A stretch of 64,000 nucleotides of DNA, from the NCBI GenBank assembly GCA_963827165.1, contig CAWGZR010000010.1, forward strand, positions 224,001-288,000, given 5' to 3'. This document shows positions 1,614 to 8,573 of the stretch, in pieces. This DNA is from Candidatus Bathyarchaeota archaeon (GTDB taxonomy: Archaea > Thermoproteota > Bathyarchaeia > Bathyarchaeales > Bathycorpusculaceae). The position numbers were made by a program, and so were the translations under genes. The notes beneath the pieces were generated by a model. It worked only from the letters and a program-made list of their open reading frames with translations, was not told the DNA's origin and did no database searches. Numbering within the stretch: the stretch's first letter is position 1; each line of letters starts with the position of its first letter.

Positions 1614-2595
1614 ACGGCTGACTTTTCGGAGGTAATTGAGCTAAACAATGCAGTAAAAGATTATGGCAGCAACAGGCGAATTGGCCCCGCAAATCTCACG
1701 ATCAGAAAAGGAGAGATTGTGGGTTTTCTCGGTCCTAACGGATCAGGCAAGACCACCTGCATCAGACTTATCTTAGGTTTAATCAGGCCAACCTCAGGCA
1801 TGGTGAAAGTCAACGGGTTTGACCCAATTGCCAACCATGTTGAAGCATTAAGGCACGTAGCGTATTCTCCTGAGTTGCCTAACATACAGACTTTTCTAAG
1901 CCCAAGAGAACTTCTTAATTTAATTTCTCATGAACTCTATTTCCCGGATAACGCAAACAGAAGTGGCGAGATAGACCGAGTGATTGAACTGGTCGGTTTA
2001 CACGACTACGCGGACACAAAGGTCGGCAAACTCAGTAAAGGGATGATTCAAAGACTGAGCGTTGCCCAAGCGTTAGTCGGCTCGCCAGAAACTTTAATTC
2101 TGGATGAACCGATGATCGGTTTGGACCCCGCAGGGGTTGTTCATTTTAGGGATGTTTTCAGGGATTTCGCAGCCCATGGGAAAGGGACAGTATTCATGTC
2201 GTCACATATCATGAGTGAGGTGGAATCGCTTTGTACCTCAGTAGCAATGATTCACCATGGGAAAATACTATTCAAAGGGTCAGTCGAGGAAGTAGTTGGA
2301 AAAGTGTTGGATTATTCTCTTGTTGAACTGGAGACTAGCCCTTTAACGCCTCAAACAATCCAACAACTAAAAGAGATTCCCGGAATAACTCAAATAAACA
2401 TGGCAGACAACGACCAAGCGGATGCCATGCTCAGTCGAAATTACAGTTTGTGAACGTGACCATGATATTAGACCAGCAATTGCCGATATCGTAGTCAAGT
2501 CGGGCGCCAAACTCTACACCATCAAGCAGGGTGAAAACATGCTAGAGAAGGCTTACATAGAAGCGCTTAAAGAAACGAAAGGTGGCAAACCTTGA
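1614..2595 (+). CDS. ABC-2 type transporter ATP-binding protein (frameshift near 2430-2460; start inferred at ACG 1614)
   Basis: Walker A GPNGSGKT, signature LSKGM, Walker B LILDEP, SSH loop; conserved N-terminus continues in frame upstream of GTG 1719. Confidence 0.85.
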
Positions 2596-3442
2596 AACGC
2601 GCTGAAGTCATTTTCACTTTTGCAAGGTATGAAATCAAGCGTGCCATCGCGCGCAAAAAAGTTTTGGCTCTAGTTGCTTTCACAATACTTCTGAGCGTAC
2701 TACCATATTACGCTTTGTCCCAAGCAGGAACCAATCTGATTCCCACAAATGTCTACTCGTACCTTTGGGTACTTGCAGTACTCCTGGTTGGTCCGCTCTT
2801 CTTAAACTTCACTGCAATCCTGATAGCTGCAGGGTCGATGTCAGAAGAATACGAGCAGGGCACAGCCGAACTTCTTTTGTCAAAACCAGTAAGACGAAGC
2901 GACTACATCGCTGGCAAATTCCTCGGCGGTTATATTCTGTTTCTTTTTATTCTTAGCTTTAACTCTTGTCTTATCCATTTCATCAGCCTTCACTTTTTTT
3001 GGCGCCCAAAACAACCTTTACCTAATTCCCGGATTATTCATAGCTCAAGCCTTTAGTTCACTATTATTCTTTTCTTTGGCTTTCATGCTTGGAGAACTAA
3101 TCAGGCGCTCTTCTCTTGCGTACATTTTCTCGTCAGCGGTTTTCTTTTCAAGTTACATTATAAGCATTTTTTTGAGCGCAATCTTTAGGGCCACGGGTAA
3201 AGTAGTTTATAAAACCGTTCAGATGTATCTTCCAACTTCGGCTGCAAGCTCGCTTCCTATTCAATATGCTTTACCGAGGCTTCCCTCGACTTTATCAACA
3301 GCCCTTTCGTCCATTCAACACTTCAACTTCTGGACCCACCATCAGCTTCTCAATCGAAATCCTGCTTGTCTACATAATCATATCAGTAACAATTGCAGCA
3401 GCTTACTTCCTGCATGCTGACATTTCAAGAAAACTAAGTTAA
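2592..3442 (+). CDS. ABC-2 type transporter permease (frameshifted)
   Basis: SEEYEQGTAELLLSKPVRRSDYIAGKFLG motif, multiple TM segments, split over ORFs 2592-3056 and 3076-3420. Confidence 0.8.
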
Positions 3443-3557
3443 TTTTATGTGAAGGATACATCACAGTTAACGAATAGATTTCTTCTCCTTTTTCCCTTTT
3501 TGCTGTTTTTGCCTGAATGGTATAACATAAAAGCAGGTTTAGGCAACATACCCAAAG

Positions 3558-4958
3558 ATGACCTCAACTCTCAAATGCATCCACTGTCAGAGTGAATTTC
3601 CAGTTTATCCCTTGAGAAGTAACTGCGAAAAATGCGGAGGAACATTAGAATTCACGGCAGACTTACCTAGAAGCAGGGGAACTGAGTTTTTCAGATCAAC
3701 TTGGATTCTGGCGATACAGGCAGGTGCTTCCCCCTGTAAATCATGTAGTAAGCTTAGGAGAAGGCGGAACGCCGATGCATAAGGCTGAGAGACTTGCTGG
3801 AGCAATCGGCTTAAAAGAACTCTACTTAAAAGATGAGACGCGCAATCCGACCAACAGTTACAGAGATCGGGCAGCCGCTTTCTTGACATCAAACGCGATT
3901 GACCGAGGCTTTGGTACACTGGTTTGTGCCAGCAACGGTAACATGGGAGCTTCCTTAGCTGCCTACACCGCAAAAGCAAGCTTGATCTGCCACGTGTTGG
4001 TCCCTAAAGTGGTCGATGTAGGCAAGTTGGCGCAAATGATCGCTTACGACGCCGTAATTGAAGAATCAGGGAATATCGTAGATGACTCCATTCGCAAAGC
4101 TTCTGACTTAGCAAAAGAATCAGGCTGGTACCAAGCAACCGCAGAACTTAACCCGTTCGTCGTTGAGGCACAAAAAACTATTTCCTACGAGATAAACGAG
4201 CAATTGTCAACCCCTGGCTGGATTATTGTCCCGATGGGAAGCGGCGGTACAATCTATTCGCTTTGGAAAGGCTTCAAAGAACTCAAACAGCTTGGGCTCA
4301 CTCAAATCGCTGCCTCGAATGGTTGGGGTTCAGACTGAAGGCTGCGCGCCAATAGTCAGCAAATTAAAAGAAAAAGCGCCAGTCAAAATCGTGCAACCCG
4401 TCGACCCGTGCATTGGCTATCCTCGTTGGCGAACCCTTGCAAAGCGACTTAGCTGTGAAAGCAATTAAGGAATCGAACGGATTGGCTTTAACAGTTTCAG
4501 ATGGCGAAATTTTGGCTTCTGAGCTTTTAGTGGCAAAACTGGAAGGGGTCTTCGCTGAACCTGCAAGTTCAGCCGCCGTGGCAGCGTTACAGAAACTGAA
4601 AGACAATCAGGTTTCTAGTGACGATAGCGTGGTGTGCCTTATCACTGGGAGCGGCTTAAAAGCCACTGATGTTTTGCAGGCGTTGAATAAAAAGCAGAAG
4701 GCGGCTGGCTTGGGACTTGCGGTCAGTACTAAACAGAAGATTCTCAAGATTCTCAGCGAAAAAGACTCCTACGGTTATGATTTGTGGAAATTGCTGGGGC
4801 AGGTTATGACCCGTGGTGCTGTTTATCAGCATCTTAATGAGTTGGCTGATAGAGGTTTGGTGGTTGGTTACGAGGCGGATGGGAAGAGGTTTTTCCGCAT
4901 CACTGAACGTGGAAGGAAGGTTTTGGCTGCGTTTGATGAGATTCAGTTGCTTATGTGA
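3558..4958 (+). CDS. Threonine synthase-like (fold type II PLP) protein with Lys-to-Arg at the PLP site and a C-terminal winged HTH; probable transcription regulator (frameshifts)
   Basis: N-terminal CxxC..CxxC, SLGEGGTP, NPTNSYRDR (canonical NPTGSFKDR), ASNGN, VPMGSGG, EPASSAA, ITGSGLK, then ILKILSEKDSYGYDLWK..RGAVYQHLNELADRGLV..KRFFRITERG. Confidence 0.8.
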
Positions 4959-4990
4959 GTTTTGGGAATGCTTATTAGGAATATAGCCAC

Positions 4991-5014
4991 AACTATAATA
5001 TAGTTATAACTATA
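4991..5014. promoter_or_regulatory. Overlapping palindromes, candidate operator
   Basis: AACTATA-A-TATAGTT (4991-5005) and perfect 16-bp TATAGTTATAACTATA (4999-5014) immediately before ATG 5017. Confidence 0.55.
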
Positions 5015-5016
5015 CT

Positions 5017-5577
5017 ATGGCGGTAAACATGGGATTCCGAACTAATCGAACAATAACACTCACAGTTGCACAGGCAGGAATCATGGCAGCACTAGTAGCA
5101 GTCGCAACGTATGCAGTGCAGGTTCCTATCCCAGCCACAAAGGGGTACCTGAACTTCGGCGACATAATGATCTTCGTTAGCGCTTTGACTTTCGGTCCAT
5201 TGGTTGGCAGCTTCGCAGGAGGCGTTGGATCTGCGTTATCTGACGTCGCAGGGGGATACGCATCAACGTACGCCCCGTTTACACTAATCATAAAAGGTGC
5301 AGAAGGAATCATCGTTGGCTTGATCGCTAAAAGGGGAAGCAGAAAAAGAAGCATCTTAGCCGTCGCCGTGGCGGGCGTGGAAATGGTGTCAGGATACTTT
5401 TTGGCTGAATTCTTCGGTCTTTCCCTCGGGTGGGCGGCGGCAACAGAAGTGCCCTTCAACATATTACAGATAGTCGCAGGCGGCGTAATCGGAATTCCAA
5501 TTGCTGTAATTCTTTGGAAGAGACTTCCCGAAGCTTGGCTAAACCCAAAATCCGCCCCAACAGTTCAGACAGCTTAA
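5017..5577 (+). CDS. ECF transporter S-component, HmpT/PdxU-like
   Basis: AALVAVAT..IPATKGYLNFGD..GPLVGSFAGGVGSALSD..YAPFTLIIKG; ~6 TM. Confidence 0.85.
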   Translation: MAVNMGFRTNRTITLTVAQAGIMAALVAVATYAVQVPIPATKGYLNFGDIMIFVSALTFGPLVGSFAGGVGSALSDVAGGYASTYAPFTLIIKGAEGIIVGLIAKRGSRKRSILAVAVAGVEMVSGYFLAEFFGLSLGWAAATEVPFNILQIVAGGVIGIPIAVILWKRLPEAWLNPKSAPTVQTA

Positions 5578-5603: not shown

Positions 5604-6611
5604 ATGAAACTTCCCCCAGGAAAAATCCCGGTTGAAATCCTCAAGGAAATCGTTTTCAAAAATTTAGGCGCTGAACGCAGCGAAGTAATTTTGGGTCCAG
5701 CCGCAGGATTAGACGGCGCAGTCTTGGACGTTGGAAGCAAAAATGCAATCGTCTCGATGGATCCGATAACGGGCGCGGTTGAACGCATAGGTTGGGAAGC
5801 CGTCAATGTCAACGCCAACGACGTCGCAACCTTCGGGGTTGAACCCGCCTTCCTATTTTCATGTCTGATGCTACCAGAAAACGCGGATAGCGAGATAGTC
5901 CAAAACATAGCAACCCAAATGAACGCTGCCGCAAAAGAGCTTGGTATCGCAATAGTTGGCGGGCACTGTGAGTCAACGCCAGGACTAACTAACCCCATCG
6001 TTGTCGGTTGTATTATGGGGTTAACTGAAAAAGGCAAATACGTCACAGCGGCAGGAGCCAAGAGCGGCGACAAATTGATTTTAACGAAAAGCGCAGGGAT
6101 CGAGGGCACAGCTATTTTGGCTTTTGATCGAGCGGACCAATTGAAAAAGGTCCTCAATCCATCTCTACTTTACAACGCAAGAAACTTTTACAATCAAATA
6201 AGCGTGGTAAAAGATGCGTTAACTGCTTATAAGGCGGGTGGAGTTCACGCGATGCATGATCCAACCGAAGGCGGGATCTTAAACGGCATCCACGAATTGG
6301 CAGATGCGGCAGGGTTAGGTGTAAAGGTTTTTGAGGACAAAATCGCGGTTGAGCCTGAAACAGCTAAAATCTGCCGTTTCTACGAAATAGACCCGTTACA
6401 GTTGATGGGTTCAGGCGCGTTACTCATATCTGCGGAGCCAGAAACCGCACCCAAAATACTCGATGCATTAAGCCAAGCACACATTGTTGCGGAAGAAATC
6501 GGTGAATTCAACCCGAGCCCGCAAAAGCGAATACTGATACTTAAGAACGAGTTGTCCAAGATGCTGCCAAGACCAGTCTCAGACCACTTATGGATTGCGT
6601 TAACCCACTGA
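5604..6611 (+). CDS. AIR synthase (PurM/HypE/ThiL/CblS-like) family protein
   Basis: GKIP, GLDGAV, DPITG, NANDVAT.G, IVGGHCE, MHDPTEGGI, DPLQLMGSGALL. Confidence 0.85.
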   Translation: MKLPPGKIPVEILKEIVFKNLGAERSEVILGPAAGLDGAVLDVGSKNAIVSMDPITGAVERIGWEAVNVNANDVATFGVEPAFLFSCLMLPENADSEIVQNIATQMNAAAKELGIAIVGGHCESTPGLTNPIVVGCIMGLTEKGKYVTAAGAKSGDKLILTKSAGIEGTAILAFDRADQLKKVLNPSLLYNARNFYNQISVVKDALTAYKAGGVHAMHDPTEGGILNGIHELADAAGLGVKVFEDKIAVEPETAKICRFYEIDPLQLMGSGALLISAEPETAPKILDALSQAHIVAEEIGEFNPSPQKRILILKNELSKMLPRPVSDHLWIALTH

Positions 6612-6647: not shown

Positions 6648-7514
6648 TTAGGATTCGATTTTCTGTCTTGCCACTGTTTCTTCTGAAAAAGGCGCAATCT
6701 TATCAGAGTTCGGTTGGAACACTTGTTGCGTCATGATCGGGCTCTGATGCTGGTTAGGTTTCGGAATCGAGTTGTTTCTTAACCAGTTAAGGGGCACTTG
6801 GAACATCCAGTATAGCAAAAAGGCTGGGTAGAACAAGGTGTAGGCGTATAGATGTGAATAGACTAAACCGCATTTAAATTCGACTATGGCTTGTGAGAAA
6901 CCGGTTTTTACGTTCCAGCTGGTCGGTGGCTTGAAGTGAAGGCAGTATGCTTCTGTGGCAACCTGCACTTTGAAGCCTTGTTCCTTGATATGCTCGATAA
7001 TATAGGCGTCTTCGTAGATCTGCAGGTGATCGGGAACGATTATACCATTGACCGATTTGGTGAGAATCAGAGTGTCGTGGGTTCCGCCGCGTAAATTGAA
7101 GCATTCCCGGGCAAGTATACTCTGCAACCGAAGAACCCGCTTATCCCTCACGTTTGGGATAACATCAACGTTTAAACCCCAAATCGCTGCAACACCATTG
7201 CTCATATCCCTCTGCGCTTTTCTGTACCAGTCCTTGCAAAGAACAACGTCACTGTCAACAAACAAAAACCATTCAGTGTTGACGTGGCGGATGCCTTCGG
7301 TTCGTGCTTTAGCCCTTGAACCGTCAATTTGAATAAGTACAATGTTTCCATGCGCCTTGTTGAAGCCGTCAAGGATTTCCAGGGTTCTGTCGGTTGAGAA
7401 GCCGTCGATCACGATTAAGTTTTTCACGGGCACATTTTCATAAACCGACGTTAAACAATTGCTGAGAACGTGCTCACTGTTCTTAGTCAGCAATACCACG
7501 TCAACTTGATCCAT
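6648..7514 (-). CDS. Glycosyltransferase family 2
   Basis: VIDGFSTDRT, FLFVDSD (DxD), YEDAY. Confidence 0.85.
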   Translation of the reverse strand: MDQVDVVLLTKNSEHVLSNCLTSVYENVPVKNLIVIDGFSTDRTLEILDGFNKAHGNIVLIQIDGSRAKARTEGIRHVNTEWFLFVDSDVVLCKDWYRKAQRDMSNGVAAIWGLNVDVIPNVRDKRVLRLQSILARECFNLRGGTHDTLILTKSVNGIIVPDHLQIYEDAYIIEHIKEQGFKVQVATEAYCLHFKPPTSWNVKTGFSQAIVEFKCGLVYSHLYAYTLFYPAFLLYWMFQVPLNWLRNNSIPKPNQHQSPIMTQQVFQPNSDKIAPFSEETVARQKIES

Positions 7515-7577: not shown

Positions 7578-8312
7578 TTAACGCTGCCCCTCTCGCCTGG
7601 CAACCTCATAGAGCGCGTAGCCTGAGTAAAACGCGTAGGCAGCAAGCAACTTGCCGATCAACCATACATCCCCAAGCGTAAGGGCTTCAGCAAACAACCC
7701 TATGCTGCCTCTAAATGTCCAAACGTTCGGCGGACGGTAATGAATGCAGAATGGGATGTAGCAGGGGATTACGCGGTAGCCTTTTTGTTCAATCCAGTCT
7801 TTTATGTAGGCGTCTTCGTAAACATGAAGTTTCTTTGGAATTTGAATATCTTTAACTAGTTCGGTTTTGATGAGGGTGTCGTGGGTTCCGCCGCGGACCT
7901 CAAAAATTTTCCGTGTAATCCGCAAAAAAATGCCCATGGTCACGGAGCTTCCGATTGTTGACCAAATCTCTGTTCCCCAAACCGCACCAACATCCTCGTT
8001 AATGTACTGTTGGGCTTTTTTGTACCAATCATTACAGAGGATGACATCACTGTCGACAAACAGAAACCATTCTGTGTTTACGTCAGCTATGCCTTTTTGG
8101 CGTGCAGTGGCACGGTTGCCTTTGTCCATTATGATTTTTACGTTGTGGTATTTTTCGTCAAACCAATTAAGAACATCCAAGGTTTTGTCCGTTGAGTATC
8201 CGTCGACTGCTATGAGTCGGGCAACTGGCACGTTGTTATACACGGATTCTAGGCATTCTTTGAGTTTTCTGTCGCTGTTCTTAGTCAACAGCACAACGTC
8301 AACCGAGTCCAC
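7578..8312 (-). CDS. Glycosyltransferase family 2 (tandem paralog)
   Basis: AVDGYSTDKT, FLFVDSD, RGGTHDTLI shared with neighbour; start inferred at GTG 8312. Confidence 0.85.
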   Translation of the reverse strand: MDSVDVVLLTKNSDRKLKECLESVYNNVPVARLIAVDGYSTDKTLDVLNWFDEKYHNVKIIMDKGNRATARQKGIADVNTEWFLFVDSDVILCNDWYKKAQQYINEDVGAVWGTEIWSTIGSSVTMGIFLRITRKIFEVRGGTHDTLIKTELVKDIQIPKKLHVYEDAYIKDWIEQKGYRVIPCYIPFCIHYRPPNVWTFRGSIGLFAEALTLGDVWLIGKLLAAYAFYSGYALYEVARREGQR

Positions 8313-8573
8313 GCAACCAACTCCTTTCTTGACCGCTAAGTTAACGGTCAACTCATAGAGGCTATGCAAAACAACTTAAAAAACAACTTGCTTGACAAAA
8401 CAATAAGGGTTGAATGTTTGCGCAAAAAATAGCCAGAAAACTTCGCATTTAACGCACAAGTTAGCGCTATACAACCGATTCTGGGCATGTACAATCCGTA
8501 CTTAAATGATTTATATTTCCGCATGAACTACAGGAAAATGAGTTCAGAGTCTTTTGTGTCTGAGGCGGGTTGA

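Follow-up and report, generated by a model that had tools for sequence, protein, structure and literature searches.

A threonine synthase-like protein fused to a PadR winged helix as a probable vitamin B6-responsive repressor in Bathyarchaeia

The 64,000-nucleotide window analyzed here lies on contig C10 of a Candidatus Bathyarchaeota archaeon genome (G000; 3.13 Mb, 94.5% complete, a bin of 14 contigs). At 3558-4958 it carries a gene, hereafter the regulator gene, that joins a domain resembling threonine synthase (ThrC), an enzyme of the pyridoxal 5'-phosphate (PLP)-dependent fold type II, to a C-terminal PadR-type winged helix-turn-helix (wHTH). With a probability of roughly 0.68, we read it as encoding a repressor that responds to B6 and would be in Archaea, with a fold-type-II sensor, what PdxR (MocR) is in Bacteria. 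The features on which this reading is built are given below; X1, X2 and X3 are metagenome runs whose contigs were compared with the window.

3558..4958, plus strand: regulator gene; zinc ribbon, ThrC-like PLP-fold domain and PadR wHTH; about 465 amino acids (aa) if intact
3576..3635, plus strand: N-terminal zinc ribbon CxxC...CxxC, with Cys 7, 10, 23 and 26
3668..3668, plus strand: frameshift 1, one base here that is left out in the contigs of runs X1 and X3
3748..4649, plus strand: PALP domain (fold type II PLP enzyme), nearest to threonine synthase
3862..3864, plus strand: Arg codon AGA at the Schiff-base lysine position, within NPTNSYRDR
4300..4300, plus strand: frameshift 2, one base here that is left out in the contigs of runs X1 and X2
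4384..4384, plus strand: frameshift 3, one base here that is left out in the contigs of runs X1, X2 and X3
4740..4928, plus strand: PadR-type wHTH (PF03551), with a recognition helix (...AVYQHL...) that is nearly invariant in the fused family
4971..4978, plus strand: TATA-like box CTTATTAG, directly upstream of the palindromes; TTTATTAG or TTTAATAG in relatives
4979..5000, plus strand: putative operator site A, a degenerate palindrome copy, 16.2 bits
4996..5017, plus strand: putative operator site B, TAATATAGTTATAACTATACTA, with 1 mismatch to the family palindrome; 33.8 of 38.5 bits
5029..5577, plus strand: target gene 1, S-component of an energy-coupling factor (ECF) transporter (PF07155, 4.1e-37), PdxU/PdxU2-like candidate B6 vitamer transporter
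5604..6611, plus strand: target gene 2, AIR-synthase-family (AIRS-like) protein, ThiL/HypE/SelD-like (PF00586 and PF02769), candidate ATP-dependent B6 salvage enzyme

Translation of 3558-4958 in three frames yields the Schiff-base motif NPTNSYRDR at 3844-3870, with AGA in the lysine codon, exactly as an earlier note on this DNA had claimed. The other cofactor-contacting motifs named there (ASNGN, VPMGSGG and ITGSGLK) are all present, within CASNGNMGAS, VPMGSGGTIY and LITGSGLKA. The gene is read in pieces, of which 3558 to ~3692 holds the zinc ribbon, ~3691-4314 the first two thirds of the PALP domain, ~4304-4411 a short middle piece and 4410-4958 the remainder of this domain, followed by a linker and the winged helix. 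The two large pieces match PALP (PF00291; 9.4e-48 and 4.1e-12), and the Gly-rich phosphate loop, the Asn loop and the T-G-x-G-L-K motif at the ring nitrogen likewise place the domain in this family; solved ThrCs are about 40% identical to it (2zsj, E 6e-63). At the C-terminus, the wHTH fusion described in the note is borne out by a match to PadR (PF03551; 1e-10, 41.9 bits against a gathering cut-off of 27) and is a trait common to the whole fused family. Both this match and the palindromic putative operator fit a PadR-type wHTH, and among solved chains PadR regulators (9qbc_A, 2.5e-5) come nearest to it. The zinc ribbon also occurs in the unfused canonical ThrC of the same genome.

The arginine is genuine and not an AAA-to-AGA error. 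The closest homolog, P0004, which shares 416 of 461 aligned residues with the window's pieces, was used to fetch 80 genome loci, and all 80 carry Arg in the motif, 77 by pattern and three as SPTNSYRDR. The same holds for 112 of 120 close homologs; the remaining eight are either truncated or escape the pattern. Over 3400-5100, contigs from four public soil-metagenome runs were compared with the window and show no difference at codon 3862-3864; one of these runs is possibly the window's own sample, yet its contigs are a separate assembly. The proposed conservation of the Lys-to-Arg change thus holds throughout the window-type loci (80/80), but a Bathyarchaeia subgroup of the family has kept Lys.

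The wider family displays the same loss with other replacements. A HMMER search with a 208-aa piece gave 150 representatives, 60 of which carry the wHTH according to a local profile of the C-terminal domain. These 60 and P0004, as 61 fused rows, were aligned with 56 unfused ones 380-440 aa in length, among them the genome's own ThrC. All unfused rows have K in the lysine column (56/56), while the fused rows have R17 L13 I11 V5 M4 T4 K2 S1 Y1 F1 N1 A1; Lys is gone in 59/61 fused rows versus 0/56 unfused ones. In a FastTree phylogeny of the PALP region (117 rows), all unfused rows fall on one side of a branch with an SH-like support of 98, and the fused rows split into an R clade of 23 rows, to which the window's type and the two K rows belong, and a hydrophobic sister clade of 38 rows. 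Protein Atlas clusters combining PALP and PadR are 99-100% archaeal, the largest having 1978 members, and the names on ten clusters are Bathyarchaeota, Lokiarchaeota, Helarchaeota, Aigarchaeota and Thermococcus chitonophagus. When metagenomes were scanned with P0136, the member from Thermococcus, a single distant locus was found, which lacks the wHTH part. Among 75 fused proteins, the invariant residues include N96, P97, D103, R104, G127, G229 and G365, and at least 90% conservation is found for T98, N128, S132, G227, E333, T362, L366 and K367, for the four zinc-ribbon Cys and for Y422, Q423, H424 and L425 of the recognition helix. The cofactor pocket is thus under strong constraint in the fused family.

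The substrate side of the pocket can be compared within the genome itself. A separate canonical thrC, on whose existence the proposal of the earlier note depended, is present at G000:C5:876053-877186 (363 bits against TIGR00260) with all canonical motifs, i.e., the zinc ribbon, NPTGSFKDR, CASTGNTSAS, NSINPFRIEGQK, IGNAGN and TTGHGLKD. The fused gene is therefore not the genome's sole ThrC homolog; the two genes are located on different contigs of the bin. The STGNT and NS..NPxR loops presumably bind O-phosphohomoserine in ThrC. They read STGNT and NS-INPFR in the genome's own enzyme and correspond to SNGNM and A-ELNPLV in P0004 (A-ELNPFV in the window). In every fused member inspected, including those bearing Lys, these canonical loops are altered and the Arg of NPxR is gone. 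The Schiff-base Lys itself, which fold-type-II PLP enzymes need for catalysis, is replaced by Arg in the window, the 80 loci and the contigs of the four runs. The regulator thus shares with ThrC the fold and the zinc ribbon found in the local canonical enzyme, and its intact homologs exceed the TIGR00260 cut-off, but it differs in lacking the catalytic Lys, in its changed substrate-site motifs and in the extra PadR domain.

Between the stop codon of the regulator and the next gene, the loci share a consensus that forms a 22-bp palindrome, TAGTATAGTT-NN-AACTATACTA. With at most two mismatches in its 20 fixed positions it is found in 79 of the 80 loci (26 with none, 35 with one and 18 with two), and only L085 has no copy at this threshold. 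It lies at most 200 bp 3' of the regulator in 77 loci; in L018 and L061 it stands directly before an S-component gene that is apart from the regulator. A weight matrix built from the 79 sites gives more than 12 bits only for sites A and B in the whole 3.13-Mb genome, and the pattern with up to three mismatches occurs once in the window and in 0/100 shuffles. The earlier note had placed a putative binding site at 4960-5020, and the conserved palindrome was indeed found there, at 4979-5017. A TATA-like box directly precedes the first palindrome copy, and the target ATG follows the last copy after 5-32 nt in 62 of the 74 loci with a callable start of the open reading frame. For the S-component in the window, ATG 5029 is the likelier start, as ATG 5017 falls inside site B. 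From this layout we infer that the palindrome lies over the expected transcription start, a position typical of archaeal repressors. The possibility that the palindrome is the terminator hairpin of the regulator was rejected, since it stays with the S-component when the genes separate (L018 and L061) and stands upstream of unlinked S-component operons. A scan of this genome with the weight matrix revealed no autoregulatory site upstream of the regulator.

The genes behind the palindrome are conserved as well. A PF07155 S-component occurs downstream of the regulator in 77/80 loci: 68 directly downstream by tblastn, six recognized by Pfam (L066, L070, L074, L076, L077 and L084), the two displaced copies of L018 and L061, and L085, which is without the palindrome. 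Five of these S-components (L066, L070, L074, L076 and L077) reach about 300 aa, some 140 of which precede the PF07155 part as an N-terminal extension. In three loci (L014, L019 and L022), whose regulators are 81-86% identical to P0004, the same palindrome is followed by pdxS-pdxT (PF01680, 2.2e-102; PF01174, 3.2e-54). After the S-component or pdxST alike, an AIRS-like gene comes next, in 73/80 loci.

The window's S-component belongs to PF07155 and resembles 4hzu_S (E 2e-15, 60 bits), its sole match in the PDB at E values up to 10, which points to the PdxU/PdxU2 group with a predicted B6 substrate. According to PMC4860826, 4hzu_S is HmpT/PdxU2 with pyridoxamine as its substrate, once thought to carry hydroxymethylpyrimidine (HMP); PMC9997740 lists both PdxU and PdxU2/HmpT as PF07155 proteins. 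Of the HmpT pocket residues given in the former (E41 H84 Q87 Y120 N140 Q143), the S-component has D K E Y N Q, i.e., three identical and one conservative, as read by eye from the alignment with 4hzu_S. At 60 bits, the archaeal protein is only distantly similar to HmpT/PdxU2 and PdxU, and its substrate is a prediction. Genes for EcfT (PF02361) are present in the genome.

The AIRS-like protein is less readily assigned, scoring 109 bits against HypE and 95 bits against ThiL in NCBIfam, both far below the cut-offs (184 bits for ThiL, TIGR01379); the Protein Atlas names it only 'AIR synthase family protein'. It was rejected as the genome's ThiL, the true one being located at C5:55023-55979 (255.5 bits). 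About 100 kb upstream, outside the window, a paralogous module (L130; G000:C10:117000-128000) comprises a TetR regulator, a PF07155 S-component, a methyltransferase, an AIRS-like protein and ThiE (TMP-TENI). Its AIRS-like protein is 31% identical to that of the window (E 4e-53) and its S-component 33%. As no PF08543 (ThiD/PdxK) kinase was found above the cut-off in the genome, this AIRS-like pair might replace the HMP and pyridoxal kinases. A general lack of PF08543 kinases in Bathyarchaeia was considered and rejected, as 71 of 151 sampled members have one; the gap is limited to this genome, its genus (0/5; G077, G169, G190, G234 and G258) and most of its family (2/15).

Neither PdxS (PF01680) nor PdxJ (PF03740) was found in this 94.5%-complete genome. 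PdxST is given as the sole archaeal route for B6 synthesis in PMC9997740, and on this gene content the organism is likely a B6 auxotroph. PdxS was likewise not found in the five other genomes of the genus, nor in any of the five other genomes with the S-component arrangement that were searched for it (four of the eight sister-clade ones described below and one further).

The sister clade repeats the association in another arrangement. Its Lys site is L, I, M or V, and its regulators are divergent from pdxS-pdxT in G270, G366 and G369, with M or L at the site in the two pdxST-divergent regulators that were translated (L122 and L124). In eight genomes of other families, a sister-clade regulator is divergent from a PF07155 S-component. 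The intergenic elements are TATATAAGTT-NN-AACCTATATA-like and have the same 10-2-10 layout and AGTT..AAC inner core as the R-clade palindrome. In G037 and G069 the regulator is located on another contig; there, the best genome-wide match to the element (one mismatch) lies about 40 bp upstream of an operon of S-component and AIRS-like genes, the latter encoding a protein 51-52% identical to that of the window. Among 150 loci, 19 (from 15 genomes) contain the degenerate pattern TATAWRAG-N6-CYYAYATA, each of them once and only at these regulator or target places; no R-clade locus (0/80) contains it. Two further arrangements were observed in this clade. At L092/L142 (G252:C66), a perfect sister-clade palindrome stands between the regulator and a divergent pair of GNAT acetyltransferase and EamA transporter; bacterial PdxR regulons include RimI/RimL-type acetyltransferases and putative transporters, as stated in PMC5320631. 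In genus g44 (L100-L106), genes for a UbiX-like flavoprotein and UbiD follow the sister-clade regulator on the same strand, and the S-component is divergent.

The repressor reading is built on what was computed here, namely the domain make-up, the missing Lys, the conservation of the operator and of its B6 gene targets, and the finding that the gene is intact in other data. The regulator would be a one-component transcription factor, the sensor of which is a catalytically dead ThrC-like domain that keeps the cofactor pocket but has lost the Schiff-base Lys and the residues conserved by canonical ThrC at substrate-binding positions. Its C-terminal PadR wHTH, presumably as a dimer, would bind the 22-bp palindrome, present in two overlapping copies at 4979-5017 that follow the TATA-like box and precede the start codon of the operon of S-component and AIRS-like genes. 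When PLP or another phosphorylated B6 vitamer is bound non-covalently, the regulator would most likely occupy the operator. Transcription initiation would then be blocked, a repression rather than an activation, and an ample supply of the cofactor would shut down B6 uptake and salvage. Relatives would use this pair of regulator and operator to control pdxS-pdxT instead. The conserved palindrome and the B6 targets thereby support the idea, already put forward from the sequence, of a fold-type-II counterpart of MocR acting as a one-component regulator of adjacent genes.

Several known systems resemble this design in part. ThiR and RbkR are archaeal one-component regulators in which a (pseudo)enzyme of the vitamin's own metabolism serves as sensor next to a wHTH. 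Their sensors are ThiN and riboflavin kinase and they respond to other vitamins, whereas the sensor of the regulator derives from a PLP-using enzyme rather than from a B6-pathway enzyme. With PadR repressors it shares the C-terminal PF03551 domain and a palindromic putative operator, but classical PadR proteins are about 110-180 aa long with a helical dimerization tail, whereas here the wHTH is appended to an enzyme-like domain of about 380 aa. MocR combines an N-terminal GntR wHTH with a fold-type-I aminotransferase domain that keeps its Lys; in the regulator, the order is reversed, the sensor is ThrC-like and of fold type II, the wHTH is of the PadR type and Lys is usually gone. No GntR or aminotransferase match was found, and the regulator resembles PdxR in its targets without belonging to that family. 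The likeness to PdxR/MocR, as PMC5320631 describes these proteins, extends to the reuse of a PLP-enzyme fold as the sensor of a one-component transcription factor, to a regulon of pdxST and/or B6 salvage with the transporter pdxU, and to a position divergent from pdxST, as in the sister clade. The same source gives MocR regulators as not present in Archaea.

A number of observations weigh against the repressor reading. Of 151 Bathyarchaeia sampled, only 24 have PdxS above the cut-off, made up of 2/42 genomes with an R-clade-type regulator (E <= 1e-110) and 22/109 without; as PdxS is missing from most Bathyarchaeia anyway, the link between regulator and auxotrophy is weak. At the same threshold, the regulator was found in none of the five other genomes of the genus, while metagenome-assembled genomes outside the sample carry copies of about 90% identity, which suggests either that the distribution is patchy or that C10 is an atypical contig of its bin. 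Lys is kept in 2/61 fused representatives and in 5/5 sampled loci of the Bathyarchaeia families f56 and f54 (NPT[SN]SFKDR), implying that its loss is not required for the presumed regulatory role. A quick IQ-TREE phylogeny of a 52-row subsample (28/61 fused and 24/56 unfused rows) with the Lys column removed needs two changes of the fused/unfused label, where FastTree showed one split, although a 14-row R clade is recovered in it with a support of 99; the data are therefore no more than compatible with one origin of the wHTH fusion. The AT-rich element of the sister clade could be two back-to-back TATA boxes, and at up to two mismatches a reversed control pattern matched about equally often genome-wide. 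Finally, PF07155 is named for riboflavin S-components and also includes riboflavin transporters, and UbiX/UbiD genes follow the regulator in one genus (g44). As to the Lys-keeping f56/f54 subgroup (L131-L135), its members are about 50% identical to P0004 and have not kept the substrate-site motifs of ThrC; an S-component and a variant palindrome, TATTGTAGTT-NN-AACTATAnTA, lie downstream in two of its five loci.

The same regulon could respond to a signal other than free PLP, an alternative that we consider unlikely but that fares best among those weighed. Either PLP or pyridoxamine 5'-phosphate (PMP) would be fixed in the pocket and a sensed amino compound would form an external aldimine, or the pocket would bind another phosphorylated metabolite, e.g., O-phosphohomoserine or 4-phosphohydroxythreonine. 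GabR-type MocR regulators work via such a PLP-effector aldimine, a pocket without Lys leaves the aldehyde free for adducts, and the Lys-keeping subgroup would also suit this model. GabR requires PLP plus GABA (gamma-aminobutyric acid), according to PMC5320631. Against these points stand the ThrC substrate positions, changed in every fused member shown, Lys-bearing ones included, and the targets, which are the genes for B6 synthesis and uptake themselves and fit direct end-product sensing.

A role outside B6, with riboflavin, HMP/thiamine precursors or another micronutrient as the compound imported by the S-component and sensed by the regulator, appears less probable still. Besides the breadth of PF07155 and the UbiX/UbiD genes of g44, such a role is favored by the HMP first credited to HmpT (PMC4860826) and by the paralogous pair of S-component and AIRS-like genes beside ThiE in this genome. 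Yet the same regulator and palindrome precede pdxS-pdxT in three R-clade loci, the sister clade is divergent from pdxST in three genomes, and HmpT/PdxU2 was matched at E values up to 10, where no RibU structure was. The thiamine-linked paralog, moreover, has its own TetR regulator and no palindrome.

The gene could also be decaying in this genome by three real frameshifts, since the window reads it in three frames and it was not found in the five same-genus genomes. We regard this as very improbable: contigs of three independent runs, with 95-99% or higher likeness, are without exactly the three extra bases, the pieces, free of stop codons and of other damage, match an intact homolog at 90% identity, and the putative operator and the target operon are intact. 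Close Bathyarchaeia homologs are intact as well, at 462-469 aa. The three frame breaks therefore either arose in the assembly or changed the gene very recently. Next door, an ABC-2-type permease at 2592-3420 is also split (open reading frames 2592-3056 and 3076-3420); as three single-base insertions are shown within 1.7 kb beside it, other broken genes of this assembly may be artefacts too.

Intact P0004 reaches 206 bits against TIGR00260 (cut-off 167) and 403.6 against NF004170 (cut-off 421), and the window's pieces fall below the cut-offs because the gene is split (123 and 50 bits for TIGR00260; 223, 14 and 120 bits for NF004170). NF004170, the NCBIfam 'threonine synthase' equivalog (PRK05638), itself covers the wHTH, and a Thermococcus protein without the Lys scores 799.6 bits against it. 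In the nearly complete genomes G141 and G264, no ThrC match other than the fused protein exceeds the cut-off. A threonine synthase or related fold-type-II enzyme that also binds DNA, i.e., a bifunctional 'trigger enzyme' as the database name implies, is the least probable reading, because the two Lys-bearing rows, the TIGR00260 score of P0004 and the sole-match status of the fused protein in G141 and G264 are set against the absence of Lys in 59/61 rows with many non-basic replacements, the Lys requirement of such enzymes, the changed substrate-site motifs and the complete canonical ThrC of this genome.

More tentatively, the B6-repressor reading may be extended to the proposal that Archaea evolved their own B6 control in the form of a Lys-less pseudo-ThrC/PadR family that senses phosphorylated vitamers non-covalently, with the AIRS-like partner as a hitherto unrecognized B6 salvage enzyme; as a whole we hold this possible but doubtful. 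The family would then range over Bathyarchaeia, Nitrososphaerota, Asgard groups, Aigarchaeota and Thermococcus, a span that is conceivable to the same limited degree. The AIRS-like partner could act as a pyridoxal/pyridoxamine kinase in place of PdxK, and its paralog beside ThiE would, equally speculatively, substitute for the HMP kinase ThiD in the same way.

If the B6-responsive repressor is real, it would fill a recognized gap, as B6 regulators are known only from Bacteria (MocR/PdxR). Since a cultured Thermococcus species carries a member, direct testing is possible. A PLP enzyme turned cofactor sensor, with natural variation at the Schiff-base position (K, R and hydrophobic residues), could reveal how such sensing of PLP works when no covalent link is formed. 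The regulon would mark a candidate archaeal B6 transporter and a candidate salvage enzyme, and indicates that many Bathyarchaeia may depend on external B6. The remark that no such family has been characterized stands insofar as no description of a ThrC-wHTH regulator was found by full-text searches of the literature outside subscription journals and supplements. It does not hold for databases, where the family is already present under the name threonine synthase. Thousands of fused proteins bear this name (1978 in one Atlas cluster alone), and the equivalog model is centered on Lys-less proteins. As the fused protein is moreover the sole ThrC call in some genomes, threonine prototrophy is probably over-predicted in Bathyarchaeia and other archaea.

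Downstream of the operon, two paralogous family-2 glycosyltransferase genes on the minus strand (6648-7514 and 7578-8369) converge on the AIRS-like gene. A glycosyltransferase homolog is found in 50-51 of the 80 loci, so the neighborhood beyond the operon is also partly conserved.

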